Shown here: one piece after another, positions 17,704-53,340 of the stretch | Position numbering within the stretch: position 1 is the first letter of the stretch | Layout: the number at the start of each line of letters is the position of its first letter | Assembly (NCBI GenBank): GCA_964578865.1 | Contig: CAZOES010000004.1 | Coordinates: 12,362 to 76,361, forward strand | DNA from: an uncultured Gemmatimonadaceae bacterium | Lineage (GTDB): Bacteria > Gemmatimonadota > Gemmatimonadetes > Gemmatimonadales > GWC2-71-9 | Direction: 5' to 3' | DNA: 64,000 nucleotides | The notes under the pieces: generated by a model | Seen by the model: only the letters and a program-made list of their open reading frames with translations | Told to the model about the DNA's origin: nothing | Database searches by the model: none | Made by a program: the position numbers and the translations under genes

Positions 17704-17800
17704 GTGCTTAGCTTCGCTTTACGAGCAAAATGTGGGGAGCTGAAGTCTCCGGGACCCCGGTTTCCAGGTGCCCAGTGGGCTACATTCATCGCGTCGAAGT

Positions 17801-17843: not shown

Positions 17844-17896
17844 TTGGATTTCTTCGGTCTGGTCAGGGGGCACGGAGACTGCTCCATTAGCCCCCC

Positions 17897-19510: not shown

Positions 19511-19573
19511 AAAGTGAAAAGTGAAAAGTGAAACGGTTGCTGGGTGCACTTTTCACGTTTCACGTTTCACGTT
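19510..19573. terminator. palindrome built from tandem heptamers (GTGAAAA x3 / TTTCACG x3) between convergent genes
   Basis: AAAAGTGAAAAGTGAAAAGTGAAACG ... GCACTTTTCACGTTTCACGTTTCACGTT. The arms pair with one A/C mismatch per heptamer and a loop of about 10 nt. It fills the whole 63-nt gap between the stops at 19510 and 19574. Confidence 0.6.
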
Positions 19574-20859: not shown

Positions 20860-21524
20860 GAGCGTTGCACCAGCAGAGTAAGATCCTTGCTCCAATCGGC
20901 CTGACGGATTCCGAAGGGATATACCACATGAGCCATGTTGTCGGTGCCGAAGGCGAGGACGATGGCCGCGTGTCCGATGTTGTACACGCTGGTGTCGGTG
21001 GTGTCCGGTCCGGCGGCTTCTCGCATCGTCTGCCCCAGACGTAGCTGGGTGAATGCCGAAGCAACCGAAGCGCTATCCCCGCGCAGGCCGATGAAGCGCT
21101 GATCGAAATGGTCCAGCCATTTTCGCATCACTTCGGGGGTATCCCGGGCCGGATCGACCGTCACGAACACCACCTTGATCTTGTTGGTGATCTCCGGCCC
21201 CAGTTTTTTCATGGCCCCGGCAATGTTGGCCATGTGGACCGGGCATACGTCGGGGCAATTGGTGTAGCCGAAGAAGAGGAGGGTGACGTAGCCGTCGGTC
21301 TCCTTCTGGAGATCGAACTGCTTGCCGTCGGTAGTGGTGAGTACCAGCCCTGGCTTCGGCAGCGGGGGCATGATCTGCGGGCCGGAAAGGCCTTCGCCGT
21401 TGAAGGGCTTAGGCGGCGCCGGTTTGCAGGCGGCGGCGAGGGTCAGCGTCAAGGCGAGCCCGGCGATCGGACGGGCGAGACGGGCGAGACGGGCGAGTAC
21501 AATGTGTAGCATCGTTCTTCTCAA
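20856..21524 (-). CDS. SCO-family (Sco1/SenC) thioredoxin-fold copper chaperone, lipoprotein
   Basis: FFGYTNCPDVCPVHM (CxxxC) plus a downstream His (YNIGHAA). Lipobox LTLAAAC. The TTG at 21524 overlaps the copD stop. An alternative ATG is at 21512. Confidence 0.88.
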   Translation of the reverse strand: MRRTMLHIVLARLARLARPIAGLALTLTLAAACKPAPPKPFNGEGLSGPQIMPPLPKPGLVLTTTDGKQFDLQKETDGYVTLLFFGYTNCPDVCPVHMANIAGAMKKLGPEITNKIKVVFVTVDPARDTPEVMRKWLDHFDQRFIGLRGDSASVASAFTQLRLGQTMREAAGPDTTDTSVYNIGHAAIVLAFGTDNMAHVVYPFGIRQADWSKDLTLLVQRS

Positions 21525-22447
21525 AGTTTCGGTGCGGGGAGGGCCACCAGCACCGCGGTCACGGCGACGAGTAAGACGGCGATTACCAGTTCAGCTGCAG
21601 CGGACTTCTTGAGTTCCCTGGTTCCTTCCGGCGACCCCAGCCTCAGGCGCACACTCTGCCAGTTCCAGGCGCCGATGCCGAGTGTGATTCCCAGCAAGGC
21701 GACTTTGACCAACAGGGCCTTTCCATAACTGGTACCCGTGAGCGAGGCGAAATCTCCCACGTAGGCGACTCCCATGACGGTGCCTGCCAGTACCGCGAGG
21801 CCGGCGCCCAGCAGAGCCGCAGGAGAGAACACCGCCACCATTTCGGTGACATCGGTTGCGTCCTCGTCGCGGGCGATGGTCAGGGCGGTCTTGAACATCG
21901 TAAACAAGGTACCCAGCCATATCCCCGCGCCGAGCAGGTGGATGGCGTGAAGACCGACCCCGAGGGCCGGACCCCAGGGGTGCTCGACCGCATGACCGGT
22001 AAGGGGCTGGGTGGCGGCAACTGCGAGTGTGGCAGTGGCGAGGAAGCTCAGTCCAGTGGCCGGGCGCCGGGGCGCGATCATGGCCAGCGGCACACTGATG
22101 AGTGCGGCGGCGACTTGAGCCATCCAGCCGCGTCCCCAGGCGGTCGCGAAGAGTATCGGCTTGGCGGCGTCCCAGGTAATTGGATCGGGATCGAGGAAGG
22201 AGCGCACCTGACCCAGTGCCCGGAGCAGATGAGCGCTGAGGAGGAGAACGGTCGCTCCGGCGGCCACCTTCCAAGTGCCCATGAGGGCGCGAGCGGCGAG
22301 ACTCTGATCATCGTCGCCGCTGCGGCGCCAGCGGGGCACCAGTACCGCGAAGGTGCAGGCACCAATGAGAATGAGTGCCGCGAGGTAGGCCAGACCGCGC
22401 GCCGCGGCATACAGATCAATGGGGAGTGGGAGATCGTCGTGATTCAT
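21521..22447 (-). CDS. copD: CopD-family copper transport membrane protein
   Basis: 308-aa protein with about 8 TM segments. LHAIHLLGAGIWLGTLF is typical of CopD. ATGA overlap with the upstream hydrolase stop. Confidence 0.75.
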   Translation of the reverse strand: MNHDDLPLPIDLYAAARGLAYLAALILIGACTFAVLVPRWRRSGDDDQSLAARALMGTWKVAAGATVLLLSAHLLRALGQVRSFLDPDPITWDAAKPILFATAWGRGWMAQVAAALISVPLAMIAPRRPATGLSFLATATLAVAATQPLTGHAVEHPWGPALGVGLHAIHLLGAGIWLGTLFTMFKTALTIARDEDATDVTEMVAVFSPAALLGAGLAVLAGTVMGVAYVGDFASLTGTSYGKALLVKVALLGITLGIGAWNWQSVRLRLGSPEGTRELKKSAAAELVIAVLLVAVTAVLVALPAPKL

Positions 22448-28268: not shown

Positions 28269-28443
28269 GATTTCCTCTCCAAGTGTCCGAAGCCGTGGTG
28301 ACTGATGCGGGCTCGGGCCGCCGGATGCGCCACGCGCCGGGAGCCCTGAAGGACTTCCTCGCCCCGGGTCGCGTTTCGCGCTCCCCAAGGGGCTCGGTCG
28401 CCAGAGACTCGATCGTCAGTGCCTGAGTTGTACTGGGGTTACT

Positions 28444-28818
28444 TCAGGACAGCGCGGGAGGTGCGTGGGCGAAGGGAAGGGTGTGAGACGGAGTAGTCAG
28501 GTCGGTGGCAGCGATGAGATGCAGGCCCGATCCAGTCGGTGCCACAACGGCGACGGTGAGAACCGGAGTGCCGCGAGCCGCAGGGAGAGCTGCAACGTGG
28601 CAGGTTCCGACACAATGGCACTGCTCGCGATGGCCGCTCTTGTGATCCATCCCCTGATGGTGGCCTTGGTGGCCGGCCATCGAGGAAGAAGCGGTCCGGG
28701 TGGAGGCTTCGGCGGCCGGGCAGGCGTGCGCCAAGTCGAGCCAAGGGCCTATTACCCCGGGACTCAACAGAATGGCAAGCGCTGCCAGGAGGGTCCGAAG
28801 ACCGGTCTGCGGCTTCAT
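28444..28818 (-). CDS. small exported His/Cys-rich protein (DUF2946-like, inferred)
   Basis: 124 aa. Signal peptide MKPQTGLRTLLAALAILLSPG. His-rich tract HQGHHQGMDHKSGH, then QCHCVGTCH. C-terminus ...FAHAPPALS. First gene of the same-strand array ending in ctaG. Confidence 0.6.
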   Translation of the reverse strand: MKPQTGLRTLLAALAILLSPGVIGPWLDLAHACPAAEASTRTASSSMAGHQGHHQGMDHKSGHREQCHCVGTCHVAALPAARGTPVLTVAVVAPTGSGLHLIAATDLTTPSHTLPFAHAPPALS

Positions 28819-32277: not shown

Positions 32278-33057
32278 CTAGGGCTCCCCTCCCTCCAATC
32301 TGCGCTCCAATTCTAATCGCCGTTCGCGAGTAACCTTGAGGCGGGCCCCGGTGTTCAGGACCACGATGCCCGCCCCGCGCTCTTCGGCCTCAACCGACTG
32401 AATCCGGGAGAGACTCACGATGGCCGAGCGATGCACCCGGATGAAGTGGCGGGGATTGAGGCGCTGCTCCAGCGAGTTGAGCGTCTCTCGCAGCAGATGG
32501 ACTGTCGGACCCACATGGAGCTTGGCGTAGTAGTCGGCGCCTTCGATCCAATCGATCTCACGAGTCTGCACCACCACGATCTGGCCGACTTCGCGAACGA
32601 TCAACCGGCCGACTCCCCGAGGCCGATCCGGCATCAGCGTGGCCAGGGCCGCGGCGACCCGGTTCTGCAGATCCTGATCCTCGGCGGGTGATCTCAGCCG
32701 GCGCACCCGTTCGATTGTCTGGGTGAGTCGCTCGGTGGTAACCGGCTTGAGCAAGTAGTCGACGGCATGCAGCTCGAACGCGCGGATGGCGTAGGCGTCG
32801 TGCGCCGTTACGAATACCACCTGTGGAAAGGAATCCCGGGGTAGCGACTCCACCAGTTCCATGCCACTCATCCCCGGCATCTGAATGTCCACGAACAGGA
32901 TGTCGGGCTGGTCTTTGGCGATTGCCACGAGAGCCGAACCCCCGTCGGCAAACGATCCAATCACCTGCACTGATGGAAAGCGCTCAATCAGCTCTACCAT
33001 CCCTTCCCGGGCCAGCGGCTCATCGTCGACCACCACTACCCTGAGCGGCTTCATCAC
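32278..33057 (-). CDS. LytR/AlgR-family response regulator (REC + LytTR DNA-binding domain)
   Basis: REC motifs VVVVDDEPLAREG, VDIQMPGMSGME and YLLKP. LytTR segment IDWIEGADYYAKLHV...HRSAIVSL. The start overlaps the kinase stop. Confidence 0.9.
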   Translation of the reverse strand: MMKPLRVVVVDDEPLAREGMVELIERFPSVQVIGSFADGGSALVAIAKDQPDILFVDIQMPGMSGMELVESLPRDSFPQVVFVTAHDAYAIRAFELHAVDYLLKPVTTERLTQTIERVRRLRSPAEDQDLQNRVAAALATLMPDRPRGVGRLIVREVGQIVVVQTREIDWIEGADYYAKLHVGPTVHLLRETLNSLEQRLNPRHFIRVHRSAIVSLSRIQSVEAEERGAGIVVLNTGARLKVTRERRLELERRLEGGEP

Positions 33058-34166
33058 CGGCCGGTCTCACGATTCGACGGAATGGTCACCCTGACCATCA
33101 CCCCCCTTCCGTCAGCTCCCGCCGTCATGACGAGTTGGGCCCGGTCGCCATAAAGTCCTGCCAGCCGGGCTCGAGTGTTGCCCAGGCCGGTGCCATCAGG
33201 TGATGGGTCGCTGCGGGCCAGGCCGGCGCCGTCGTCGAGGATCGTAAGGGTCAGCCGGTCGTCGTGGGTCTCGGCCCTGACTGTCAGATGGAGGACAGTG
33301 TCCGAGTCGATGAATCCGTGGCGAATGGCGTTCTCGGTGAGTGGTTGAAGCAGAAAAGAAGGAACCACCCGCTGATGAAGCTCGGTGGGAATGTCGATCT
33401 CAGTCTGCAGTCTGGTGCCATAGCGAACCTGCTCGATCCCGAGATACTGCCGCAGGGCCGCGAGTTCAACACCCAAGGTCACCAGCTGCTGGCTCGAGGA
33501 TTCGAGCGAATGCCGCAGCAATCCCGCCAGCCCCGTTACCATCCGTTCCACCGCATCGCTTTGCCCTCGGCGGGCGAGGACCGCGATGCTGTTGAGCGCG
33601 TTGAACAGAAAGTGAGGGTTGAGCTGGGCCCGCAGGGTATCAAGCTGGGCATCGGCCAGCTGGCCATGAAGCCTGGCGGCGGTGGTTTCGAGCTGACGGG
33701 CTCGCTGGATCGTCAGGTAACCCCAGGCGACCGCGATGACGGCGGCGCCCAGCAGAAGGTTGGTCGGCGCGTTGTGGCCCTGCAGGTGATGAAAGCTGGC
33801 GGGCCACCCCTGTCCGGGAGGCATAACCAGTTTGTGAACTGGCAACGAAAGGGCCGGGACCACGACCAATGGGAGCAGCGCGAGCAGCAGAATCAGTGGA
33901 ATGCCGATCCAGATCGATGGGCGACGGTCTACCATCCGGCGAACCACGGGCACCAGTACGATCGACCAGATGGACCATGCGATCCAGTAGGCACCCTGAG
34001 TTTCCACCACCGTGAACCAAGGCAGGGGCGGGTCGAGCGCGGCGTTGAATTCGAAGGCCTGAATAGTTCGGAGCGCGAACACCACCAGGGCGGTCGCGCT
34101 CAAGATGAAATACAGGGAGAAGGGCTGCCGGCGATCCGAGCCGCTGTCGGCTGGGGTTGGACTCAT
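33054..34166 (-). CDS. LytS/YehU-type sensor histidine kinase (His_kinase PF06580-like + HATPase_c)
   Basis: The ORF track start is 34283. The ATG at 34166 avoids overlap with the permease gene. Multi-TM N-terminus. H-box LNPHFLFNALNSIAVL. N-box LTENAIRHGF. G-box ILDDGAGL. Confidence 0.85.
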   Translation of the reverse strand: MSPTPADSGSDRRQPFSLYFILSATALVVFALRTIQAFEFNAALDPPLPWFTVVETQGAYWIAWSIWSIVLVPVVRRMVDRRPSIWIGIPLILLLALLPLVVVPALSLPVHKLVMPPGQGWPASFHHLQGHNAPTNLLLGAAVIAVAWGYLTIQRARQLETTAARLHGQLADAQLDTLRAQLNPHFLFNALNSIAVLARRGQSDAVERMVTGLAGLLRHSLESSSQQLVTLGVELAALRQYLGIEQVRYGTRLQTEIDIPTELHQRVVPSFLLQPLTENAIRHGFIDSDTVLHLTVRAETHDDRLTLTILDDGAGLARSDPSPDGTGLGNTRARLAGLYGDRAQLVMTAGADGRGVMVRVTIPSNRETGR

Positions 34167-34200
34167 GCCGATAACATACTGAGTTCCCCAGCCATCCGAT

Positions 34201-36645
34201 TCAACTCCCGCCGGTGAGCGCGGTGGATGGCTCGACCCGCGCGGCCCGCCGGGCCGGAACAATCGCGGCCGCGGCGCCGGCAATCAGCGCGGCGGCGAGT
34301 ACGACCAGAAGTACGCCGGCATCGAGCGCACCTACGCCAAATAGAAGGCCGGAGAGCAGGCGAGCCGACAGCAACGCTCCCAGGAGACCGGCAGCGGCGC
34401 CGATCGACACCAGGGTGGCCGACTCCTTGCCGACCAGCGCAATTACATCGGCAGGTCCCGCGCCGAGCGCCATCCGGATGGCCAACTCTCTCCTCCGCTG
34501 ATTCACCAAATAGGAAAGCACCGCGTAGGTTCCCGCCATGGCCAGGAGCAAGGCTGCGATGGCGTAACCGGCCATGAGCCGAGTCGCGGTGGTCATGCGG
34601 GCCCGGGCTTCCAGCAGGATGTCACCCATCGAGGCGACCTTGTCGGTCGCAGCACTGGGTGCGGCTGCAGAGATGATACGCCGGATTGAAGGGGCCAGCG
34701 CCATGGCGTCTCCCCGGGCTCGAACCACGAGGTAGATCTCGGTCCTGAATGCGAGATTGGCGTAGGTCCCCAGCCCGGGCGCGTAAAACTCGGGTCTCGG
34801 CGCTTCGGTGAGACTGCGATTCCTGGCGTCGGCCACGATGCCGATAATCGGCATCCAGGGCGAGGCTGGTCCGAAACGAAGCCGGTGACCGATCGGGTCA
34901 GTGCCGTCAGGGAAAAGCCGTTTCGCCAGTCCCTCGCTGATCACCAGTGGAGTGAGGGCCGGGCCGGCGTCGTCGTCGGTGAACAAACGTCCGCTCCGCA
35001 GAGGAATTCCCATGGCCGCAAAGTATCCCTGACTGACTACGCGATAGTCGGCCAGCGGATCGGTACCGTCGGCCTTGAACGGGCGCCCTTCGACGGCCAT
35101 AGCCATGTCCTGACGGCCACGGGTGAGAGGCAACGCGTTTACCAACCCGGCTGCAGCCACACCAGGCAGGCTCCCCGCCTCGCTTACCAGTCTGCGAAGC
35201 AGGGTTTCCCGGGCCGATCGATCCTGCAGAACAGCCTCGGGAAGATTGAATCGTACCGTGATGGTAGAGTCGGGATGAAAGCCCAGTTGTACCTGCTCCA
35301 CCGAACGGGCAGACGCGATCAGCAGACCGGCCCCGTGGACCAGCAGTACCGCCAGCCCCACCTGAGCCGCAGCCAGCCCTCGGCGAATCCGGTTGGCACC
35401 GGCTGTTCCGGTTCCGACTCGGTTCCGGAGGCCGCTCCCAGGATCTCGCCGGACCACCAGGGCAACCGGCAAGGCGCCGACTGCCACTCCGATTATCAGC
35501 ACCACGATCGCGGTCACCGCGAGCAGCGACCCGTCGCTGAGCGGGCCGCGTACCGCGATGCTGAGTGGCAGGAGTGTGGCCAGTAATCGGGCGCCACCGA
35601 TCGCCAGAATCATCCCCAGCAGGGCGCCACTGGCAGTGAGAATCAGACCCTCGATCAATGCCCCGCGGATCAGCCGGCCACGGGTGGCACCCATCGCGGC
35701 ACGGACTGCCAGTTCCTCACCCCTGACAATGACTGCGGCCAGCTGAAGATTGGCTACGTTGGCGCAGGTGAGAAGCAGCAGCATCAGTACGCCCGCCAGG
35801 AGAAGTCTGACGATTGGCCGAGCGTCTCCCACCAGATCCTCTGCCAGAGGATGGACGTCGGCAAAGTATCCGGATGGATCGACGGCGGTGCCCGGATGGG
35901 GGCCGGGATACTCGCGCCCGACGGCGCGGAGCAGGTCGGTCAGTTCCTTCCGCGCCTGATCGAGGGTCTGACCCTCGCGAAGCCGGCCCACCGGGTTGAA
36001 CCGATTGTTATAAGGGTTCACCGAGGCGGGATCGATCTGAAATGCCTCCCAGGCCCCGACCTCACGGGAAGGAAATGCAACCCACGCCGGCAGCACTCCC
36101 ACAATCGTGTATGGCTCTCCTTCGAGATTGGCTATCCGGCCGATGACGGCTGAGTCGGCGTGAAATGCTGCTCGCCAAAGCCAGTTTGACAGCAGCAGCG
36201 CGCGAGGGCCACCGGGTTGTCCTTCCTCGGCCGTGAATGCCCGGCCGATGGCCGGTTCGATCCGGAGCACCGGGAAGATCGACGTCGATATCTGGGCCAC
36301 AATCAGCCGGCGAGGAGTAGCTTCGCCCAGCAGATTGGCGTCCCGGGTGTCCCAGGTGCCGACCGCCTCGAGCGAACGGGCTTCGGCCAGCCTTCGAAAG
36401 CCGACATCGGAGTATGAGAGCCGGAGATCGGGAAAGGCGGGAATGATCTGCCGGATGCTGACCAGCCGACTGGCATGGTCGAATGGAAGCGGGCGGAGCA
36501 GGACGGCATCGACCACGGTGAAGATCGCGAGCGAGGCACCGATACCGATGCCCAGCGTCGCGGCCACCACGATCGAGTGAAACGGGCGATTGGTAATGCG
36601 CCGGAGGGCGAACCAGAAGTCGTGCCCCAGGCCCAGGCTTTTCAC
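34201..36645 (-). CDS. ADOP/MacB-type duplicated FtsX-domain ABC permease
   Basis: 814 aa. N-terminus FWFALRRITNRPFHSIVVAATLGIGIGASLAIFTVVDAVLLRPLPF. Two FtsX-like 4-TM modules are separated by large periplasmic regions. No ATPase domain in the ORF. GTGA overlap with the upstream small gene. Confidence 0.85.
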   Translation of the reverse strand: MKSLGLGHDFWFALRRITNRPFHSIVVAATLGIGIGASLAIFTVVDAVLLRPLPFDHASRLVSIRQIIPAFPDLRLSYSDVGFRRLAEARSLEAVGTWDTRDANLLGEATPRRLIVAQISTSIFPVLRIEPAIGRAFTAEEGQPGGPRALLLSNWLWRAAFHADSAVIGRIANLEGEPYTIVGVLPAWVAFPSREVGAWEAFQIDPASVNPYNNRFNPVGRLREGQTLDQARKELTDLLRAVGREYPGPHPGTAVDPSGYFADVHPLAEDLVGDARPIVRLLLAGVLMLLLLTCANVANLQLAAVIVRGEELAVRAAMGATRGRLIRGALIEGLILTASGALLGMILAIGGARLLATLLPLSIAVRGPLSDGSLLAVTAIVVLIIGVAVGALPVALVVRRDPGSGLRNRVGTGTAGANRIRRGLAAAQVGLAVLLVHGAGLLIASARSVEQVQLGFHPDSTITVRFNLPEAVLQDRSARETLLRRLVSEAGSLPGVAAAGLVNALPLTRGRQDMAMAVEGRPFKADGTDPLADYRVVSQGYFAAMGIPLRSGRLFTDDDAGPALTPLVISEGLAKRLFPDGTDPIGHRLRFGPASPWMPIIGIVADARNRSLTEAPRPEFYAPGLGTYANLAFRTEIYLVVRARGDAMALAPSIRRIISAAAPSAATDKVASMGDILLEARARMTTATRLMAGYAIAALLLAMAGTYAVLSYLVNQRRRELAIRMALGAGPADVIALVGKESATLVSIGAAAGLLGALLSARLLSGLLFGVGALDAGVLLVVLAAALIAGAAAAIVPARRAARVEPSTALTGGS

Positions 36646-44775: not shown

Positions 44776-47031
44776 CTAGAATCTGGTCCCCAAGGTCAAC
44801 TGAACGGTCCTTCCCTGGCCCGGGTTCTCAGCGTTGGTTTTGATCCGGCTGAGGAAGTTGGCGTACGCCTGGTCGAACAGATTGCGCACCGCCAGGTCGA
44901 CCTGGATCGCTCCCGGCCCGGAGCCGATGGTGAACCCGGCACCCGCGTTGGCCAGAGTGTACCCGGTCGATTGATATCCCTTCCCCTCGAACGCCCCGGC
45001 AAAGAACGACGCTTCGGCTGGATCAAGTCGGCCCTGCCGGGCATTAGTCTCACCACCGACCGAGAAGTAGGGATTCCGAATCACCCCTTCACCACCCGGC
45101 TCGATCCGTAATGTGTAAGTGGCGCGGAACGGCGGCATCGACGGTAACGGATTGTCGGTGCTGGTATTGGTGCCGTTCACATAATCAGCGGTACCCTGCA
45201 GATGGAGCCAGCGTGTCGGATGGTACTGCGCCGCACTCTCGAACCCGGCCAGCCGGGCGTTCCCCTGGGTCACATCGTAGATCTGGAAGCCCGAGGCGCT
45301 GTCGACCGACCCGGTCGGTACGGTATAGATGAAATCGGTAATCCAGTTGACGAAGCCCCCGATCTCGATCGCTGCGTTGGTGGTCTGGAGCCGAAGCGCC
45401 AGGTCGGTATTGAGCGATTTCTCGGTCTTGAGGTTGGGGTCGCCCCGCTCGAATGCGACCGTTCCCTCGTGTACTCCGTTAGAAAAGAGATCGAAACTCG
45501 AAGGAGCCCGGAACCCCCGACCGACATTGAGCACCAGCGCCACCGGCTCGGCCAGCTTGTAGAGAAAGCCGAGATTGCCGGTTACCGAATTCCAGCTCCG
45601 AGTCTGAGCCGCGACCGACAGGTCGCTATCGGCGCTGACATCCATGTGGCGATAGTCGTACCGGGCCCCGAACGAAAGGTCCCATTTTCCGCCGTGGACC
45701 TGCTCGAATCCGTAGAGCCCCACCGCATTCACGCCGGTGTTGGGAATCAGCGTCTCCTCGCCGAACTTGTCGAACGTGGTGCGGATCCCGCTGAGTCCGA
45801 ACACACCGGACAGGTTACCGATCGGTGCGTGATGGAAATGGGCGTCGAGGCTGTAATTCCTCGACAGCAGACCCAACGCTACGTTGTCGCTTCCGGCTTC
45901 CTCGAACTCCCGGCGGCGGTTCTGCTCGAATCCGCCCGTCAGCTCCAGCCGGGAAGCACCCAGCGGGATCATCCCGTCGATTCTGGCCCGGCTGGTGGCA
46001 ATCCGCTGAAAGGGGGTGGCATCGGGCGCTTCATCGGTCAGCTCGATTTTCTCATCCCGTTGAGTGAAGCTGCCGGTGAGGCTGCCCCAGCTGCCCCGAG
46101 CGCCGGCGGCCAGACTTCCACCCAGTGCTTGGTTGCCGCTGTTCCAGAGTTGGTAGTCCGGAGTTCGCAGATCTTCGCTGGTCCGTCCGCTCAGAGTACC
46201 GCGAAATCCGAATTGCCCGGTAGCGCCTTCGAGGAGCAGCGCCCCGTCAGGCTCACGGTTGTTGGTGCTGTACGAGGCCGACGCTTCGCCGCCGAACAGA
46301 CTCTTCCCCGGCTCCGCTGTGGGAAGCGGCTGGGGGATTACGTTCACTACTCCTCCCAATGCATCCGACCCGTACAGCACGCTGGCCGGTCCCCGAATCA
46401 CCTCGATCCGGTCGGCCAGCGCGGTCTCCAGGTTGGGACCGTGCTCATCACCCCACTGCTGGGTCTCCAGCCGCTGCCCATCGTCCAGGATCAGCACCCG
46501 GTTGGAGGTGAGGCCGCGAATCACCGGTTTTCCGATTCCCACCCCGGTGCTCAAACTGTGGACTCCGGCAACCTGATTGAGGGTCTCACCCAGACTGGGT
46601 GATTGGGCCGAGCGGAGATTGGTCCCATCGACCACTGCGGTCGGCTGGGGCGAGGTCAGCGGATCGGTTGCGCCGGGAGTGGAGGTGACCTGAATCGGCG
46701 GCAGTTCTACCAGCGAAGGCTTGAGCCCAAAGTCGAGCGTGATTTCCTGATTCCCCAGCTGAACTCGGCGGGCCTGCGGGGCAAAGCCAATCGATGAGAC
46801 TGAGATCAGATAATTGCCGGTCGGGAGGCCGGCGATCCGGTACTTCCCTTCCGGGTCGGTGGTGACGGTTCGTCCGGCTTCAACCACGGTGACCCGGGCC
46901 TCAGTCAATGCCGAACCGTCCGCGGTACTGGTAATCCGGCCACTCAAGGCCGGGGCTGTGCCTGAATCGGGTATTGCGGGTGAACTCATCGGGCCGGTTG
47001 CGAGCAACGCGCCGAGCAAATGCGCCAACAT
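44776..47031 (-). CDS. TonB-dependent outer-membrane receptor with carboxypeptidase-regulatory-like N-terminal domain
   Basis: The ORF track start is 47082. The ATG at 47031 has a strong SD (GGAGGATTCCCGATG). CarboxypepD_reg-like LSGRITSTADGSALTEARVTV. Plug motifs KPVIRGLTSNRVLILDDG and IEVIRGPASVLYGSDALGGVVNV. C-terminal ...LTLGTRF. Confidence 0.88.
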   Translation of the reverse strand: MLAHLLGALLATGPMSSPAIPDSGTAPALSGRITSTADGSALTEARVTVVEAGRTVTTDPEGKYRIAGLPTGNYLISVSSIGFAPQARRVQLGNQEITLDFGLKPSLVELPPIQVTSTPGATDPLTSPQPTAVVDGTNLRSAQSPSLGETLNQVAGVHSLSTGVGIGKPVIRGLTSNRVLILDDGQRLETQQWGDEHGPNLETALADRIEVIRGPASVLYGSDALGGVVNVIPQPLPTAEPGKSLFGGEASASYSTNNREPDGALLLEGATGQFGFRGTLSGRTSEDLRTPDYQLWNSGNQALGGSLAAGARGSWGSLTGSFTQRDEKIELTDEAPDATPFQRIATSRARIDGMIPLGASRLELTGGFEQNRRREFEEAGSDNVALGLLSRNYSLDAHFHHAPIGNLSGVFGLSGIRTTFDKFGEETLIPNTGVNAVGLYGFEQVHGGKWDLSFGARYDYRHMDVSADSDLSVAAQTRSWNSVTGNLGFLYKLAEPVALVLNVGRGFRAPSSFDLFSNGVHEGTVAFERGDPNLKTEKSLNTDLALRLQTTNAAIEIGGFVNWITDFIYTVPTGSVDSASGFQIYDVTQGNARLAGFESAAQYHPTRWLHLQGTADYVNGTNTSTDNPLPSMPPFRATYTLRIEPGGEGVIRNPYFSVGGETNARQGRLDPAEASFFAGAFEGKGYQSTGYTLANAGAGFTIGSGPGAIQVDLAVRNLFDQAYANFLSRIKTNAENPGQGRTVQLTLGTRF

Positions 47032-47112
47032 CGGGAATCCTCCAAGACAGACGGACCACCGAGTCGCATGGCTCGGCGGCAAACGAGAATCGAGGTCTGG
47101 TTGTGGGAACGC

Positions 47113-47457
47113 TCAGAGGAGCGTCGGAGGAGCCCGGCTCTGGTAGGAAAGGTCGAGACGCTGAGGGACGAACTGAACCACGACCGAAAGAATCGCGGCG
47201 TGGGTAATTGCCGAGGCAACCAGTACGGAGCCTTTGCCCGGCGCCAGATCGCGGAGATCGGCCAACAGGCGGCCAAGCACACAGTGCTCGCTGTGATCGG
47301 CGCAACCACCACGGCCTTCGAGGTGAACTCGACCCCGGACCGGCCCATTCTCGATCCGGTGATCCAGCAGGACATCCGCCTCCGGCAAGCCGAAGCTCCC
47401 CGCGACGAATATCGTCGCGAGGAAAATCGCCTGCAGCCGGAGGAGGAATTGCTTCAT
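47113..47457 (-). CDS. small exported Cys/His protein (DUF2946-like, inferred), paralog B
   Basis: 114 aa. Signal MKQFLLRLQAIFLATIFVAGSFG. Motifs GLPEADVLLDH and CADHSEHCVLG. C-terminal SRAPPTLL. It lies between the ZnuB-like gene and the TonB receptor. Confidence 0.6.
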   Translation of the reverse strand: MKQFLLRLQAIFLATIFVAGSFGLPEADVLLDHRIENGPVRGRVHLEGRGGCADHSEHCVLGRLLADLRDLAPGKGSVLVASAITHAAILSVVVQFVPQRLDLSYQSRAPPTLL

Positions 47458-47460
47458 GGG

Positions 47461-48300
47461 TCAGGCCGGAGCCGGATTCAAGGCGAAGCGGCGCACGGCC
47501 CACGCCAGCAGCAGCGCGATACCGAATACGCAGACCACCACGGGGCCGGTCGGCAGATCGTATTTGAAGCTGATGGTGATCCCCAGTGCCGAGACGATCA
47601 CCCCGGCGATCCACGAGATTATTGCCAGATAGCCGTGACGCCGGGTGAACTGGAAGGCGATGGCCGCGGGGACCACCAGGAACGAGAACACCAGCAACAC
47701 CCCCACGATCGGCACCGAGAAGGTGATCACGATGCCGAACGAGAGATAGAACCAGAAGTCCCACAGCCGGATCTTCCACCCTTCGCGCTCGGCCTTCTCG
47801 GGCTCGAAGGAGATGGTGAGGAATTTTCGGCGCAGAATCCAATGGAAGAGCCCCACCACCAGGTAGACCGCCGCCAGGCGCCCGATCGCCGGCCACCCGA
47901 CCCAGAGCAGGCTTCCCACCAGGATGTCCTTGATCGCTTCGCCACCCCGGGGGGACTTGTCGGCCACCAGCAGGCCGGCCGCCGATGCCACCACGTACAC
48001 GATGCCGATGATGGCCTCCTGCGGTACCCGGCCCTCACCGTGTTTGGATCGGGTCAGTGCGAACATCGCCGCGCCCGCCGTAGTGAATCCCAGGGCGTAG
48101 GCGAACGACCGGGCTGAATCGGGCTCGGCCCCGAGAAAAATGGCGATGGTCGAACCGAGCGCGGCTACCTGAGCCAGCGAGAGATCGACAAAAATCACTT
48201 CCCGGGCGATGACGTGCACGCCGAGATAGGAGTGAATGGCCACGATCGCCATGCAGGCGACCAGCGGGGCCAACCACAGGCTGTGGACCAATGCGTCCAT
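47461..48300 (-). CDS. metal ABC transporter permease (ABC-3 / ZnuB-TroCD family)
   Basis: The ORF track start is 48609. The ATG at 48300 shares one base with the upstream TGA (TGATG) and gives MDALVHSLWLAPLVACMAIVAIHSYLGVHVIAREVIFVDLSLAQVAALG, typical of ZnuB-type permeases. Confidence 0.88.
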   Translation of the reverse strand: MDALVHSLWLAPLVACMAIVAIHSYLGVHVIAREVIFVDLSLAQVAALGSTIAIFLGAEPDSARSFAYALGFTTAGAAMFALTRSKHGEGRVPQEAIIGIVYVVASAAGLLVADKSPRGGEAIKDILVGSLLWVGWPAIGRLAAVYLVVGLFHWILRRKFLTISFEPEKAEREGWKIRLWDFWFYLSFGIVITFSVPIVGVLLVFSFLVVPAAIAFQFTRRHGYLAIISWIAGVIVSALGITISFKYDLPTGPVVVCVFGIALLLAWAVRRFALNPAPA

Positions 48301-49328
48301 CAGGAAGCTCCCTTGCGGAATCCAGCGACGAGGCCGTTGATCCAGGTATTCATGAGATCGAAGTAGGTGTCGACTCCCGGTGCGCCGGCGGTGTTCTCCG
48401 GGACGACGACCGGCGTGGCTCCGGTCTTTTCTGCTACCTGCTGGATCTGGTTCCGGTTGAAATAGTTCGAGGCAAACAACACCGGGATATGCCGCTCCTT
48501 CATCAGCGCGATCACTTCCTCCACGTGCTTGGGGGTCGGCGGGATTCCCGGTTTGGCCTCGATATAGGAGGCGCAGCTCACCTGGAACCGATGACTGAAG
48601 TAAGCCCACTCCTTGTGGTAGCAGGACATCTCCTTGCCCCGGAAGATCTCGCCTGCCTTGAGCCAGCCGCCCAGCTTATCCATGAGCGGCTTGCCTTGAA
48701 GTTTGTTGCTGCCGAGGAAGTCGAAGAGCTTGTCGCTCTTGAGAAGATTGAACGCGGCGGCGGGAGTCAGGATATTCACCAGCTCCGCACCCATGGTGGC
48801 CTCCAATACCCGCTTCTCGAAATCGGCCTCGCGAGCGGTGAAGTAGGCGGCGTCGTTAGGAGCCACCCGGCTCAACCCGGTCAGAATATTCCGGGCAATG
48901 ATGATCGCGTTGAGCGGATCGGTGTGGATGTGGGGATTCCCGTCGGCGTGGATATCGCCCTCGGACCGGTTGAGCGAGGTCGGCACCTCGAGCAGGGTGA
49001 TCCCGGTGTAGGCCGTCACATAGCCCGGCCCGCCTTCGCTCACTTTACGGTTGCTGGCGCGGTCGAGCAGGGCCGGAACCCAGAGCTCGAGGTCGAGGCC
49101 GGTAGTGACGAACACATCGGCGTCCCGCAGCACCGCCACGAAGCTGGGCTTGGGTTGGACGAAGTGGGGATCCTCATCGCCCTGGGCGATCGAGGTGACC
49201 ACCCCCCGCTCTCCGGCGATTTCCCGGGCGATGGCGCCGTAGGTGGTGAGGCTGGTGACGATCTTGACCTGGTCGGCGGCGGGCTTGGGTGCCGGGCCGG
49301 AGAGCAGGGTGAGAAGAGTTAAAATCAT
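48300..49328 (-). CDS. metal ABC transporter substrate-binding protein (ZnuA/TroA cluster A-I family)
   Basis: 342 aa. KIVTSLTTYGAIAREI, GDEDPHFVQPKPS and DGNPHIHTDPLNA (metal-ligand His motifs). No long His-rich loop. Confidence 0.85.
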   Translation of the reverse strand: MILTLLTLLSGPAPKPAADQVKIVTSLTTYGAIAREIAGERGVVTSIAQGDEDPHFVQPKPSFVAVLRDADVFVTTGLDLELWVPALLDRASNRKVSEGGPGYVTAYTGITLLEVPTSLNRSEGDIHADGNPHIHTDPLNAIIIARNILTGLSRVAPNDAAYFTAREADFEKRVLEATMGAELVNILTPAAAFNLLKSDKLFDFLGSNKLQGKPLMDKLGGWLKAGEIFRGKEMSCYHKEWAYFSHRFQVSCASYIEAKPGIPPTPKHVEEVIALMKERHIPVLFASNYFNRNQIQQVAEKTGATPVVVPENTAGAPGVDTYFDLMNTWINGLVAGFRKGAS

Positions 49329-49353
49329 CGGGTGTGCTCGTTGATGGAGAAAT

Positions 49354-49443
49354 ACGTCATCCCGAGAGAGCGACAGCGAACGAGGGAGCTACCCACCAGT
49401 ACGGTGGAGGAGGTCCCTTGCGCGGACGCGCTCGGGATGACGT
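49354..49443. repeat. intergenic palindromic repeat, family A (GTCATCCCGAG ... CTCGGGATGAC)
   Basis: Perfect 13-bp terminal inverted repeat ACGTCATCCCGAG (49354-49366) / CTCGGGATGACGT (49431-49443). It encloses imperfect inner stems (CGAGGGAGCT.., CCACCAGTACGGTGG). Same termini and inner CGAACGA..CGAGGGA words as 60489-60576. Confidence 0.7.
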
Positions 49444-49466
49444 AGGTGTGATTGCGAGCGAACATC

Positions 49467-50822
49467 TCAGTACGTCTCATGCTTGTGCGGCCCCATGGCG
49501 AACACCGCCTGGAGCAGCAACCGATTGTCATTCCCGCCGCCGTCGATGTGATGGTGCCGGCCTTCGAGACGGAGATAGACGAATTCACTCTCCCACCAGG
49601 TGATGGTGGGAGAGACCTGCCACTCGGAGACCTTCGCTCCCCGAGCCGATTCGACGTAGTCGTAACGGGTGCCGAAGATCCAGCGCTGGCTGGTCTGCAA
49701 TACCAGATCTGCGAACATGCCGTAGCGGGTGGTCTGGTCGTTCAGCTCATCGCCCCGGAAGCGATACCCTTCGGCCCGGAAGGTGAGATTCTTTCGGGTC
49801 CCGGCATTGGGCGGCCGCCAGGTGAGCCTCAGGTCTGCACCCAGCACCCTGCCCTGCAGGGTGTCGCCGTGATTCCCGCCCAGGGCGGTAAATCCGATCT
49901 GGCCATAAGTGCTCCGCGAGAGCTGCCAGAAGTTCTGCACTCGACCGAGCAGGGTTCCATGCCGGCCGTTGCCGTAGAGCGGCTCGCTCTCCGCGCTGGT
50001 GCCCTGAACCCAGACTTCGTGAGTCCCACCGAAGAGCGACACCGGAAGGGTGGTGTAGAGCGAAAGACCGGCCCCGGCCAGTCCGTCGGTTCCCAGATAG
50101 CGCTGGTACACCAGGGGATACTCTGACTCGGGCAACGCGTGAGTGTGCCACCGGTTGAGATCACCGACCTGCTCCCGGATCTGGCCCAGGTCGGCCCGGA
50201 TCTTGGCCGGCAATCCGGTATACCAGATGTATCCCTCCTCCACCTCGACCTCATCCGGGGTGAAGCTCAGGATGATTTTCGCGTTGGAGTAAGGGTCGAG
50301 AGTCGACTGCAGGGCGACTTCGAATTCGCTGGCATCGCCGGAGAGACCGTGATGCTCCCGGCCGATCAATCGGATATCACCGGTGGCACTGATCTCGGGA
50401 TTGAGCGCCGATCCGCTCCGTTGCCGGCCGACGAACTCGGTGCGTTCGGGCTTGGCGAGGGAGTCAGGCTTCTGGGCCTGCGCCGGCCCGCCCGCTGCGG
50501 CGGCCGCAGCGGCGCGAAGCGCGGCGAGGTCATCGCTCGCTGAGTCTGCGGCGGCGGGGGGCGCGCCGGGCCCACAACGAGCGGTGATCAATTTTTCCAG
50601 ACGGGCGCTCAGCTGACCCAGGCTCTGGCTCAGCGAGTCCTTGCCTGGTGCCACAATCGCGGGCCCGGCCGGGCACCCGCCCCGCTCCAGAGTGTCCATC
50701 CGGGCCGCCAGCCGCGCCATCGCCGCTTTGACGTCGCCGGCGGGTTGCTGCGCCGATGCCGATGCCACTCCCCCGAGAAGGAGGGCCACCAGCCACACTG
50801 CTGTGCCAGTTTTCTGCCGCAT
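49467..50822 (-). CDS. putative outer-membrane beta-barrel (porin-like) protein with Ala-rich N-terminal extension
   Basis: Signal peptide MRQKTGTAVWLVALLLGGVASASAQQ. An Ala/Leu-rich, coiled-coil-like region of about 120 aa has two Cys. It is followed by alternating-hydrophobicity strands, a His-rich end (RHHHIDGGG...GPHKHETY) and a terminal aromatic residue. No family recognised with confidence. Confidence 0.5.
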   Translation of the reverse strand: MRQKTGTAVWLVALLLGGVASASAQQPAGDVKAAMARLAARMDTLERGGCPAGPAIVAPGKDSLSQSLGQLSARLEKLITARCGPGAPPAAADSASDDLAALRAAAAAAAGGPAQAQKPDSLAKPERTEFVGRQRSGSALNPEISATGDIRLIGREHHGLSGDASEFEVALQSTLDPYSNAKIILSFTPDEVEVEEGYIWYTGLPAKIRADLGQIREQVGDLNRWHTHALPESEYPLVYQRYLGTDGLAGAGLSLYTTLPVSLFGGTHEVWVQGTSAESEPLYGNGRHGTLLGRVQNFWQLSRSTYGQIGFTALGGNHGDTLQGRVLGADLRLTWRPPNAGTRKNLTFRAEGYRFRGDELNDQTTRYGMFADLVLQTSQRWIFGTRYDYVESARGAKVSEWQVSPTITWWESEFVYLRLEGRHHHIDGGGNDNRLLLQAVFAMGPHKHETY

Positions 50823-50903
50823 GATGCTCCCAACGTCCAGGGTGACTCCGGGATGGAATCACCTCATTGCATGAGCCGAGTTGTTAGAGGCTGAAGCTTC
50901 GGG

Positions 50904-51254
50904 TCAGGCGGACGGCGGAGCGCGAGGAAGAGCGAGGGTGTGGTGGAACTGGGTCGAAAGCGGAGTCAGCGCCGGCAATCTGGCTACACCAACCGGTGCC
51001 AGGGACACCGTTGGTGTTGCTGGTACGCAGGGAAGACCGGTGCTGGTGGCCGGGCTGGACCAAACCGCGCAACCAAGGAGGTGTGAGGTACCGGTTTCCT
51101 GCCCGCTGGTGACCCCAACCTCGGTGGAAACCGATCCAGCGCTGGTGGAGTGGAACCAGAGGGCGTCGACGATCGGCAGCCCGAATCCCCCCACCAGGAG
51201 GACCAGGAAGAGAACCAGTGCCTTGGCGCGGAGGCGCCCGGGCGAGCGTGACAT
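50904..51254 (-). CDS. small exported Cys/His protein (DUF2946-like, inferred), paralog C
   Basis: 116 aa. Signal MSRSPGRLRAKALVLFLVLLVGGFG. Motifs GLPIVDALWFH and SHLLGCAVW. C-terminal PRAPPSA. First gene of the 21-kb minus-strand array. Confidence 0.55.
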   Translation of the reverse strand: MSRSPGRLRAKALVLFLVLLVGGFGLPIVDALWFHSTSAGSVSTEVGVTSGQETGTSHLLGCAVWSSPATSTGLPCVPATPTVSLAPVGVARLPALTPLSTQFHHTLALPRAPPSA

Positions 51255-51413
51255 GGCAATGAAGGTATGCAGCGGGTCCGGTCAGGGGTAGGGCGGCCGG
51301 TGTAAGGCTCCATCTCAAGCCAACTTGGCGTTTCACCCCGTTCCAACCCTCCGCCGTCCCTCCCGTCCCTCGCGGTTCCCGGAAGCCGGTTTTGCCGGGT
51401 ACCTTCCTCTTAT

Positions 51414-52583
51414 ATGGCGAGCGGCGAGACGGAACTGGGCGAGCGGAGGGGACTGGTCCCCTGGCCGGTGGGGTTCGGCATCTTCACTCTCATCGGCCTG
51501 GCGTTCGCCTTCTCCGGTTACGCCATGTATGCCGTCAAAGGCGAACCGATTGCTTTCGTGAAGACCCTCTACTGGGGTCTGGCCGAGTGGTGGTTATGGG
51601 CCTTGTTAGCGCCGGGAATCTTCTGGCTGGATCGCGCGGCTCCGCTGGGAAAATCCACCTGGCGCCGTTCCCTTCCGATCCACTTACTGGGTTATCTGGT
51701 GGCGCTGCTGCTGCACGAGACCGGCTACGTGCTCCTGGAGAGGGCCAGTGGCTGGACCATGGTTCCCACCCCGCCATTCGCCCGTCATCTCCTGGTCTTT
51801 GTCAGTAAACGGGCACCGTTCGATTTCCTGGTCTATTGCGTGCTCGTCGGGTCCTCCTGCATGGCCAATATCTACCGCCGTTATCAGGAGCGGGAGCTGC
51901 GAGCCTCCCAGCTGGAGGCCCAGCTGACTAAGGCCCAGCTGGAAGTGCTTCGGAGCCAGCTGCAGCCCCACTTTCTGTTCAACACCCTCAATACCATCTC
52001 CTCGCTGGTCAACAGTGACACCGTCGCAGCCGAGCGGGTGGTCAGCCGCCTGGGCGATCTGCTGCGACTCTCGATGAAGCACACCGGCCAGAATGAACTA
52101 CCCCTCCGCGAGGAGCTGGAGTTTCTGGGTCACTACGTCGATATCCAGCGGAGCCGCTTCCGGGAACGTCTCAATGTCGAATTGAGCGTTCCCAACGAAG
52201 TGCTGGAGGGGATGGTGCCCACTTTCGTTCTCCAGCCCCTGGTGGAGAATGCAGTACGGCACGGCATCGAACCCCGAACCACTCAGGGCCGGGTGCTGGT
52301 CAAAGCCTGGCGGGAGGGCAACCGCCTGATTCTTGAAGTCGCCGACAACGGCCCCGGTCTGGTCGGCCCGGTGAAGGAATCCAACGGCAATGGCCGGGGA
52401 ATCGGTCTGGCGAATACCCGCGCCAGACTGGAGCAACTCTATGGTATGAACCAGTCGATCTCGATCTCCAATCGACCGGAGGGCGGGGTGGTGGTGCGTC
52501 TGGAGGTTCCCTTCCGGGAGTTCGAGGGGCAGCGGACTCCGATCCCCGATCCTCGACTCACGATCCGCAACTCGAATGCCTGA
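51414..52583 (+). CDS. LytS/YehU-type sensor histidine kinase
   Basis: Multi-TM N-terminus. H-box LQPHFLFNTLNTISSL. N-box LVENAVRHGI. G-box VADNGPGL, GIGLANTRARL. Confidence 0.85.
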   Translation: MASGETELGERRGLVPWPVGFGIFTLIGLAFAFSGYAMYAVKGEPIAFVKTLYWGLAEWWLWALLAPGIFWLDRAAPLGKSTWRRSLPIHLLGYLVALLLHETGYVLLERASGWTMVPTPPFARHLLVFVSKRAPFDFLVYCVLVGSSCMANIYRRYQERELRASQLEAQLTKAQLEVLRSQLQPHFLFNTLNTISSLVNSDTVAAERVVSRLGDLLRLSMKHTGQNELPLREELEFLGHYVDIQRSRFRERLNVELSVPNEVLEGMVPTFVLQPLVENAVRHGIEPRTTQGRVLVKAWREGNRLILEVADNGPGLVGPVKESNGNGRGIGLANTRARLEQLYGMNQSISISNRPEGGVVVRLEVPFREFEGQRTPIPDPRLTIRNSNA

Positions 52584-53340
52584 TATTCGCGTCCTCATCG
52601 TGGATGACGAGCCGCCGGCTCGTGAACGGATTCGGGCACTGCTGGCTGACGAATCCGACATCGCCATCGCCGGCGAATGCGAAAGCGGTCTTTCGGCGGT
52701 CGAGTCGATCAAGAATCTCGATCCCGATCTGGTCTTCCTCGATGTGCAGATGCCGGGACTCGATGGATTCGGGGTGGTCGACGCCCTCGGTGAGGCCCTG
52801 CCGGTGCTGGTGTTCGTTACGGCCTACGATGCCTATGCGGTCCGGGCCTTCGAAGTGCACGCGCTCGACTACCTGCTCAAGCCGTTCGACCGGGAACGAT
52901 TCCGGGCCACGCTCGATCGGGCCCGCTCGGTGCTGGCCGAGCGAGCTCCGGTGAATCAGATCGCCGGGGAGGCGGCGCCGATTTCAGAGGCCGATCCCGG
53001 TCGAGCTCCACTCCGACGGATGCTGGCCAAACGGGATGGCCGGCTGATCGTGCTCAAGGTTGCCGAGATCGACTGGATCGAATCTTCGGCCAACTACGCC
53101 TCGCTGCATGTGGGGAAAGAGACCTACCTGGTGCGGGAGACCATGCAATCGCTGGAAGGCCGGCTGGATCAGGCCCAGTTTCTCCGGATTCACCGCTCCA
53201 CCATCGTGAATCTGGACCGGGTCCAGGAGATCGAGCCCTACTTCCACGGGGACTACATCGTACGGCTGGCCGACGGCCAGCGCCTGACACTGTCGCGCAC
53301 TTATCGGGACCGGCTGCAGAAGCATTTCGGCCGGATGTAA
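52576..53340 (+). CDS. LytR/AlgR-family response regulator (REC + LytTR)
   Basis: VLIVDDEPPARER, LDVQMPGLDGF and YLLKP. LytTR segment IDWIESSANYASLHV...HRSTIVNL. 8-nt overlap with the kinase gene. Confidence 0.9.
   Translation: MPDIRVLIVDDEPPARERIRALLADESDIAIAGECESGLSAVESIKNLDPDLVFLDVQMPGLDGFGVVDALGEALPVLVFVTAYDAYAVRAFEVHALDYLLKPFDRERFRATLDRARSVLAERAPVNQIAGEAAPISEADPGRAPLRRMLAKRDGRLIVLKVAEIDWIESSANYASLHVGKETYLVRETMQSLEGRLDQAQFLRIHRSTIVNLDRVQEIEPYFHGDYIVRLADGQRLTLSRTYRDRLQKHFGRM

Follow-up and report, generated by a model that had tools for sequence, protein, structure and literature searches.

Metal-sensing arrest peptides and the locus studied

The closest described systems to the one studied here are two leader peptides of the DUF2946 family (Pfam: PF11162), CruR and CutF. 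CruR of Bordetella pertussis (Bp2923) controls the downstream TonB-dependent transporter in cis, via the copper-dependent relief of a translational stall and Rho-dependent termination (Roy et al. 2022, PMC9426467). It has a CXXC motif, an RAPP motif three residues from the C-terminus, a spacing of 45 residues and a 162 nucleotide (nt) spacer (PMC9426467), and in the PURE system it arrests with the P and A sites of the ribosome occupied by two Pro codons (PMC12992588). CutF of Rhodobacter capsulatus is a DUF2946 member with a CxxxC motif, whose copper-dependent stall melts a stem-loop in which an anti-Shine-Dalgarno (anti-SD) sequence masks cutO's ribosome-binding site (PMC9973294; bioRxiv 10.1101/2025.02.05.636593). 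Here we analyse three small upstream open reading frames (uORFs), named A, B and C, on a 64,000 nt stretch of DNA (the window) from an uncultured Gemmatimonadaceae bacterium (GenBank assembly GCA_964578865.1, contig CAZOES010000004.1, positions 12,362 to 76,361), which has a G+C content of 63.6%. We consider it about 80% probable that they encode cis-acting leader peptides of the CruR/CutF type and not working partners of outer-membrane proteins.

The class of metal-sensing arrest-peptide uORFs represented by CruR and CutF is already known, and its pairing with TonB-dependent receptor and OEP genes is published. A total of 5,334 CutF-like proteins were reported, whose sites are made up of Cys, of His or of a mixture and whose spacers are mostly below 100 nt; their commonest neighbours are OEP/RND, TonB-dependent receptor and PCuAC genes, and according to the authors not all members are specific for copper (Öztürk et al. 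2023, PMC9973294). Small signal-peptide proteins with a C-terminal RAPP or RGPP are over-represented 5' of TonB-dependent receptor genes in Gram-negative bacteria (PMC12992588), and the role of RAPP, RGPP, HAPP and QAPP as cores of translational arrest is established (Fujiwara et al. 2024, PMC10987492). A preliminary description of the present locus had stated that DUF2946 proteins have no known function, which CruR and CutF as regulatory nascent peptides have made outdated, and had taken the pairing of such proteins with outer-membrane genes for an undescribed module, which was anticipated by the neighbourhoods reported in PMC9973294 and PMC12992588. Neither Gemmatimonadota, zinc nor ZnuA is mentioned in the main text of PMC12992588, and neither Gemmatimonadota nor zinc in the main text of PMC9973294. 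The word 'zinc' does not occur in the CruR paper (PMC9426467), the CutF preprint (bioRxiv 10.1101/2025.02.05.636593) or PMC10987492, and we found no zinc-responsive arrest peptide in the literature searched.

The uORFs of the window resemble CruR in that they are small, exported and directly 5' of a TonB-dependent transporter gene (A and B), carry a sensor motif with Cys at a spacing of about 45 residues (48 in B and C, 44 in A) to a C-terminal RAPP-like motif two or three residues from the end, and precede uptake genes that are expected to be on at low metal. In contrast to CruR, B and C have a D...H...HxxxC pattern instead of CXXC, they score below the Pfam cutoff, and with spacers of 81 nt instead of 162 nt they look wired for masking of the Shine-Dalgarno (SD) sequence and not for Rho. 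B is furthermore internal to an operon, right after a ZnuB-like gene, whereas CruR is at the operon head, the phylum is Gemmatimonadota and not Proteobacteria, and the metal is possibly zinc.

With CutF the uORFs share the Sec signal, a putative Cys/His metal site, which in A is a CxxxC like that of CutF, and a stalling motif with prolines close to the C-terminus. Further parallels are a short spacer and an anti-SD sequence, predicted for B and C to mask the ribosome-binding site of the next gene, and OEP/RND, TonB-dependent receptor and PCuAC genes as frequent neighbours. The differences are that CutF turns on a detoxifying oxidase at high copper through a metal-induced stall, that the predicted anti-SD sequence of B and C is the very stretch that encodes RAPP, that the genetic context is ZnuA/ZnuB and that there are two leaders in one operon. 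More distant parallels are the arrest peptides SecM (RAGP), ApdA and ApdP (RAPP) and the RQH family (HAPP/QAPP/RGPP), which likewise combine an R/H/Q-A/G-P-P core near the stop codon with an N-terminal localisation signal and regulate the next gene (PMC10987492; Morici et al. 2024, PMC10951233). All minor motif variants observed here (RGPP, RSPP, RPPP, HAPP and QAPP) are listed in these two studies. Unlike the uORFs analysed here, which precede metal transporter genes and carry conserved metal ligands, peptides of the SecM/ApdA/ApdP type monitor Sec or YidC and precede secA, secDF or yidC.

Anatomy and conservation of the uORFs

The three uORFs are all located on the minus strand, and the coordinates and motifs given for them in the preliminary description are exact. 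uORF B (47113-47457) encodes 114 amino acids (aa), with the segments MKQFLLRLQAIFLATIFVAGSFGLPEADVLLDH...GGCADHSEHCVLGRLLADLRD...LSYQSRAPPTLL. After the export helix, with the motif G20-S-F-G-L-P-E-A-D-V-L-L-D-H33, it contains H55-S-E-H-C59 and ends in SRAPPTLL; the potential ligands D28, H33, H55 and C59 are accompanied by C52, H45, E47 and H58, and a 48-residue linker leads to RAPP at residues 108-111 (window 47125-47136), followed by a tail of three residues. uORF C (50904-51254; 116 aa; segments ...LLVGGFGLPIVDALWFHS...SHLLGCAVWSSPATSTGLP...TLALPRAPPSA) repeats this layout with an export helix, G22-G-F-G-L-P-I-V-D-A-L-W-F-H35, H58-L-L-G-C62 and the C-terminus PRAPPSA, that is with the same four ligands (D30, H35, H58, C62), the same 48-residue linker, RAPP at residues 111-114 (window 50913-50924) and a tail of two residues. 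uORF A (28444-28818; 124 aa; segments ...GVIGPWLDLAHACP...MAGHQGHHQGMDHKSGHREQCHCVGTCH...HTLPFAHAPPALS) has an export helix, the motif GVIGPWLDLAH, a His/Met-rich stretch, the cluster C67-x-C69-xxx-C73-H (CHCVGTCH), a 44-residue linker and HAPP at residues 118-121 (window 28456-28467), again with a tail of three residues (HAPPALS). The candidate metal motif differs between the three, with a CxxxC (C69-V-G-T-C73) in A, C52-x6-C59 with H55 and H58 in B and only H58-xxx-C62 in C.

Each N-terminus is basic and continues with a hydrophobic stretch of about 17-20 residues, which reads as an N-terminal export signal of the kind carried by more than 95% of the DUF2946 members. The view that A, B and C are exported and metal-related proteins is supported. 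In an AlphaFold model of B, built with a 133-sequence alignment, residues 2-32 form a helix (predicted local distance difference test, pLDDT, >90) and residues 55-69 a short helix, the rest being coil, with a predicted template modelling score (pTM) of 0.37; as modelled, B has no globular domain. Among the 732 stop-to-stop open reading frames (ORFs) of at least 50 codons in the six frames of the window, [RHQ][AGSP]PP within eight residues of the stop is found only in A, B, C and two out-of-frame artefacts, a rarity which argues that this set of motifs did not arise by chance.

In the 133 aligned sequences of the B/C family, which have a mean column identity of 29%, the columns C59, R108, P110 and P111 are invariant, and D28, H33, H55 and A109 are conserved in at least 90%. 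Apart from Cys, family-wide conservation of the metal motif is limited to H55 (with C59). The motif R[AGPS]PP (n = 152) is RAPP in 142 sequences, RGPP in six, RPPP in three and RSPP in one, and its tail is three to four residues long in 132 out of the 152. From the conserved Cys to the Arg, 116 sequences have a spacing of 48 residues and 29 sequences one of 47, adding up to 145 of 152. The stretch of some 35 residues that links the sensor segment to the LSYxSRAPP end is hypervariable in sequence but has hardly any insertions and deletions. In the homologues of A, C67-x-C69-xxx-C73-H is conserved together with [HQ]APP at the C-terminus; C73 and H118 are separated by 44 residues. Taking the CruR-like spacing as about 45 ± 2 residues, counted from the Cys motif, we rated all three uORFs as CruR-like, with 44 residues in A and 48, slightly longer than 45, in B and C. 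The invariance of R108, P110 and P111 supports a putative arrest at RAPP.

Family relationships

Searches for close homologues found 15 for B, 32 for C and seven for A. When 1.84 billion representatives were searched with a profile of the B set, 167 representative clusters matched at E <= 1e-3; with few exceptions they are 108-125 aa long and align from end to end. Pairwise BLASTP among A, B and C gave weak or partial matches only, and family profiles were required to relate them. C matches the hidden Markov model (HMM) of the 133-sequence B family end to end with 64.1 bits, compared to at most 14.7 bits in 500 shuffles, from which we conclude that B and C are paralogues; hhalign relates B and C with 89% probability in the N-terminal part. 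With the same HMM, A reaches 6.1 bits, a score that shuffles of A surpass (maximum 13.1), and hhalign detected no significant link of A to B or to C. The three uORFs had been proposed to be paralogues, and we keep this for B and C and dropped it for A, which is a separate lineage that shares only the layout and which, in its layout, is nearest to CutF and CruR.

The DUF2946 layout that had been attributed to these proteins is reflected in a weak resemblance and in no match at the Pfam threshold. With PF11162 (gathering cutoff 23.7 bits) B scores 20.6 bits (E = 8e-4) and A 12.9 bits (E = 0.19), and C has no match. Out of the 133 B/C-family members, none passes the cutoff and 11 match at E <= 0.01, and no member of the A family passes it, the best having E = 0.042. 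All genome-resolved relatives are from metagenome-assembled genomes of Gemmatimonadales/Gemmatimonadota.

Two further observations concern the protein records. The exact C protein is missing from a public collection of 15 billion proteins, which holds A from a Logan assembly alone and not from the NCBI contig, so the uORFs A and C are probably not annotated in the source genome. One collected protein, P0093 (410 aa), fuses a histidine-kinase fragment, a B-type uORF without RAPP and the N-terminus of a CarboxypepD_reg receptor, and is most likely a frameshifted or mis-called gene.

Codon choice and predicted pairing with the Shine-Dalgarno sequence

The codons of the arrest motif are unusual. 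In 18 distinct loci the Ala codon of RAPP is GCT 15 times and the first Pro codon is CCT 14 times, compared to 9.2% of the Ala codons and 10.5% of the Pro codons in the Pfam-supported genes of the window. In the mRNA, GCU-CCU-CC contains the anti-SD sequence CUCCUCC. The minimum free energy fold of B pairs cGG-GCU-CCU-CC with GGAGGAUUCCCG of the receptor ribosome-binding site (SD GGAGGA), and that of C pairs CGC-GCU-CC with GGGAGC and AUGCG of the next gene. For the GGAG core, the predicted probability of pairing with the final 48 nt of the uORF averages 0.83 over 17 loci. Synonymous recodings drawn from the codon usage of the window have a mean pairing of 0.34, and none of the 100 recoded sets reaches the observed mean. 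Selection probably acts at the nucleotide level on the RAPP codons.

The spacers of B and C are both 81 nt long. In the spacer between B and its receptor gene (47032-47112, minus strand), which is C-rich and G-poor in its 5' half, a small predicted hairpin brackets the stop codon, and downstream of it come a CAGAC/GUCUG stem and a GC hairpin that is variable. Seven close B loci give a consensus fold in which four elements are kept, namely the RAPP:SD helix, a 5-bp hairpin around the tail codons and the stop, the CAGAC/GUCUG stem and a GC hairpin that varies between loci. For the spacer following C (50823-50903, minus strand), the predictions place the SD sequence GGGAG and the start region opposite C's R-A-P codons. 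The spacer following A (28269-28443, minus strand) is 175 nt long and has no well-defined predicted structure.

Gene order in the window and in relatives

On the minus strand of the window, the genes follow each other in the order C, a gene for a 451-aa protein, ZnuA, ZnuB, B and receptor B. The ZnuA-family (cluster A-I) metal-binding protein (48300-49328), with AztC as best NCBIfam match, is followed by a ZnuB/AztB-like ABC-3 permease (47461-48300), whose start, placed by analogy with 279-aa calls in two related loci (L001 and L004), overlaps the ZnuA stop, and the ATG of B is located 3 nt after the ZnuB stop. TonB-dependent receptor B (44776-47031; 751 aa) has CarboxypepD_reg, Plug and barrel domains and no Cys; its start ATG at 47031 is preceded by a GGAGG Shine-Dalgarno sequence and gives the same 751-aa product as in the protein collection. 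TonB-dependent receptor A (25956-28268, minus strand; 770 aa from the real start ATG at 28268) has the same CarboxypepD_reg-Plug-TonB architecture. It was correctly noted before that A and B stand directly 5' of TonB receptor genes, which begin after 175 nt and 81 nt, respectively.

For C, the preliminary description named a porin-like barrel as the next gene product. What follows C after 81 nt is a gene for a protein of 451 aa with a signal peptide (49467-50822, minus strand), and its barrel is a candidate only, with no family match and an AlphaFold pLDDT of 38. The protein begins with the signal peptide (...ASA|QQP) and an N-terminal helical part with two conserved Cys, and continues with a His-rich and beta-rich C-terminal half with many beta-hairpin-like repeats that ends in HKHETY. 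It is 74-80% identical in three other loci, is situated between the C-type uORF and ZnuA and is the first gene after the C-type uORF in all cases. Profile searches against Pfam (even at E <= 10), NCBIfam and PDB sequences gave no match, and in the single-sequence AlphaFold model, which is unusable at this pLDDT, beta-hairpins are seen in the C-terminal part only. From its sequence it could be an uncharacterised component of metal uptake.

The six-gene module from C to the receptor is kept in other Gemmatimonadota contigs (L001-L003, L004/L005 and L012/L013), and in L001-L003 it is directly followed by PhzF-CopC-CopD-SCO1-PCuAC-CtaG. In all other readable loci (L007-L010, L015, L016, L020, L022, L023 and L024) a B-type uORF is followed by a receptor of the CarboxypepD_reg-Plug-TonB type, and in L023 an ABC-3 permease is also found just 5' of it. 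The exception is a distant member of the B/C family, P0113 (L021 247-597), which heads an OEP-CzcB-RND efflux operon (686-6229). A uORF immediately 5' of and co-oriented with a metal-homeostasis gene was thus found in the window, in L001-L005, L012-L013 and L021 and in the B-type loci, and the one-to-one tie to the next gene that had been proposed holds in every locus checked, as a receptor after each B-type uORF, save for the distant efflux-operon member.

Several features of the surroundings were noted on the way. ZnuA-like and ZnuB-like genes occur without an adjacent ABC ATPase (ZnuC) gene in the window (47461-49328, minus strand) as well as in L001 (8116-9995) and L004 (4364-6237). Receptor A is followed on the same strand by BNR, S15 peptidase, CopD, SCO1, CtaG and CopA-like ATPase genes, the copper island of the window being located at 14789-22447 (minus strand) with a CopA-like P-type ATPase with an HMA domain (14789-17077), CtaG (19574-20431), SCO1 (20856-21524) and CopD (21521-22447). 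The counterpart of this island in L001-L003 lies directly 3' of the unit of B uORF, receptor and PhzF, whereas the window has some 16 kb of additional genes between the two, A and receptor A among them. There are two paralogous two-component pairs of the His_kinase/LytTR type (32278-34283 on the minus and 51414-53340 on the plus strand). The second is divergent from the C uORF, as it is in L004, and is a candidate transcriptional regulator of the C-to-receptor operon. A conserved CCCGCTGCATACCTTC element is found 8-10 nt 5' of the ATG of the C uORF, which has no Shine-Dalgarno sequence (window 51255-51290, minus strand; L001 around 6200-6240; L013 around 2240-2260), and may be a -10-like box for a leaderless transcript or one with a very short leader. 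Comparison of the promoter regions upstream of C brought out this CCCGCTGCATACCTTC element and no recognisable operator palindrome.

Proposed mechanism and alternative explanations

The observed anatomy, conservation, gene order, codon bias and predicted pairing would fit the following mechanism. Each peptide would be synthesised with its N-terminal export helix first, followed by the conserved ligand set (Asp, two His and Cys for B and C, the CxCxxxCH cluster with the His/Met-rich stretch for A) and by a linker of arbitrary sequence and fixed length, 48 residues in B and C and 44 in A. Peptide-bond formation would then stall at R-A-P-P, or at H-A-P-P in A, with Pro codons in the P and A sites and two to four codons before the stop. 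By that time the sensor residues would be just outside the exit tunnel or the translocon, and because they would have just emerged at the stall, we propose that metal occupancy can lengthen or shorten it.

In B and C, a ribosome stalled on the RAPP codons, with their rare anti-SD mimic GCU-CCU-CC, would sit over the anti-SD segment, roughly as far as the stop codon, and leave the SD sequence of the next gene open for translation, a wiring of the CutF/SecM type; access of Rho to the C-rich spacer may be prevented by the stall as well. After a short stall, translation would terminate, the RNA would refold with the SD sequence masked and the downstream gene would be off. The operon of C, the 451-aa protein, ZnuA, ZnuB, B and the receptor would in this way contain two checkpoints in series. 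Since B and C gate uptake genes, the logic of CruR is expected, with stall and expression at low metal and release on metal binding. A secondary role of the released peptide is possible.

The alternative that survives best, although we regard it as rather unlikely, keeps the arrest peptide and gives it a transcriptional output as in CruR: the stall would block Rho loading on a C-rich spacer, release would lead to Rho termination, and SD masking would be secondary or incidental. In its favour, the plus-strand GC skew is +0.26 to +0.37 in windows spanning 47060-47179, so that the mRNA has more C than G from the 3' end of the uORF into the spacer, and the 175-nt spacer of A is similar to the 162 nt of CruR (PMC9426467). 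This composition makes a Rho component as in CruR possible, especially for A. A terminator scan found no intrinsic terminator-like site on the minus strand of the B/C operon, which agrees with an output through Rho and makes classical attenuation by a terminator hairpin unlikely. However, the spacers of B and C are short and largely base-paired in the predictions, which is unfavourable for Rho loading, rut sites are not reliably recognisable from sequence, and the enrichment of the rare GCU-CCU and the SD pairing would be left unexplained.

We find it very improbable that the mature exported peptides are metallochaperones or adaptors in the periplasm or at the outer membrane which act physically on the downstream channel by metal delivery or plug release, as was proposed before. 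The export signal and the conserved potential metal ligands would suit such a role, as would the strict adjacency to genes of outer-membrane transporters, and the CutF-like relatives CopL, CusD/SilD and CzcI have been discussed as metal-binding proteins (PMC9973294). It fits poorly, however, with a model that lacks a globular fold (pTM 0.37) and with about 35 residues between sensor and C-terminus that vary in sequence and not in length. Moreover, the most conserved element is an established arrest motif at a fixed distance from the stop (PMC10987492, PMC12992588), the bias in the RAPP codons and the predicted SD pairing would make no sense for a protein acting in trans, and CruR and CutF, which act in cis, can hardly be detected as proteins (PMC9426467, PMC9973294).

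Least probable of all are secretion monitors for Sec or the signal recognition particle like SecM, ApdA and ApdP, released by the pulling force of export and with His and Cys serving another purpose than metal binding: the export helix with a C-terminal RAPP-like motif is indeed the layout of Sec/YidC-monitoring arrest peptides (PMC10987492) and a fixed distance from sensor to RAPP is also typical of force-sensing, but the downstream genes are for metal transporters and not sec or yidC, the near-invariant residues besides RAPP are Asp, His, His and Cys, and A has a copper-type segment rich in His, Met and Cys and is encoded beside CopD, SCO1, CtaG and CopA.

Cis-acting, metal-sensing leader peptides therefore remain our preferred explanation, and several points weigh against it. 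All three uORFs fall short of the Pfam DUF2946 cutoff, and we infer the stalling itself, the metal binding and the regulation, including the metal sensed and the direction of the response, from sequence throughout. The RAPP:SD helix is invariant among close relatives and so has no support from covariation, and the codon counts are not independent because the loci are phylogenetically related. The folding energies of the whole regions are no better than those of shuffled sequences (z = -1.3, -1.0 and +0.5), and the SD sequence pairs with other segments in L016, L018 and L020. The preference for GCU-CCU might reflect tuned decoding kinetics instead of RNA pairing. For A, with its long and structurally ill-defined spacer, the fold is uninformative. 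Finally, the distant member at the head of the efflux operon in L021 has the same predicted wiring as the uptake operons, its SD sequence pairing with the tail codons of the uORF, and would require the opposite metal logic.

Which metal may be sensed

With its His/Met-rich stretch, its CxCxxxCH cluster containing a CxxxC as in CutF and its CopD/SCO1/CtaG/CopA neighbours, A looks copper-like. For B and C the evidence is mixed between zinc and copper. Zinc is suggested by the ZnuA/ZnuB neighbours, for which AztC and AztB are the best NCBIfam matches, by the ligand set of Asp, His, His and Cys without CXXC or Met, and by the distant member 5' of a CzcB-type efflux system. In the metal-binding proteins of such transporters, a His as third ligand is typical of the zinc type and a Glu of the manganese type. 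The protein of the window has a His at this position ('CYHKEWAYF' aligned to 'SHDAFGYF' in 8svc). Receptor B scores 154 bits with ZnuD-type and 76 bits with copper-type models, both far below the cutoff, and its partial NCBIfam matches lean towards the heme/ZnuD type over the copper type. Copper is suggested by the two characterised prototypes, CruR and CutF, both of which sense it, and by the module in L001-L003, which abuts a CopCD-SCO1-PCuAC island. Receptors A and B themselves gave no clues to the metal: both lack His-rich loops, Cys residues and an OprC-like CxxxM/HxM site, and all their NCBIfam matches are far below the cutoffs. The direction of the response is not readable from sequence, and uptake genes would call for a stall at metal scarcity as in CruR.

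A more specific proposal, which we put forward only tentatively, is that B and C define a sister family of CruR/CutF in the Gemmatimonadota which is missed by the DUF2946 models and senses zinc instead of copper through a co-translational Asp-His-His-Cys site. Two serial checkpoints, the first for the His-rich protein and ZnuA/ZnuB and the second for the receptor, would then control one zinc-uptake operon, with GCU-CCU-CC as the anti-SD sequence.

Conclusion

What this study adds to the known class is modest. It consists of a large sister family of Gemmatimonadota type outside the Pfam model, with a putative D/H/H/C sensor and a 48-residue ruler, of two probable leaders in series in a ZnuA/ZnuB/receptor operon, of arrest codons that double as a predicted anti-SD sequence, and of a possible specificity for zinc. 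For annotation, at least 167 sequence clusters of B type are below the DUF2946 threshold. The regulatory reading displaces that of a chaperone acting with a barrel, and what look like three genes for metal-binding proteins probably serve as switches that the ribosome reads. If the ZnuA/ZnuB-linked family does sense zinc, metal sensing by nascent chains would reach beyond copper, and the operon from C to the receptor would be a natural example of two arrest checkpoints within one operon.

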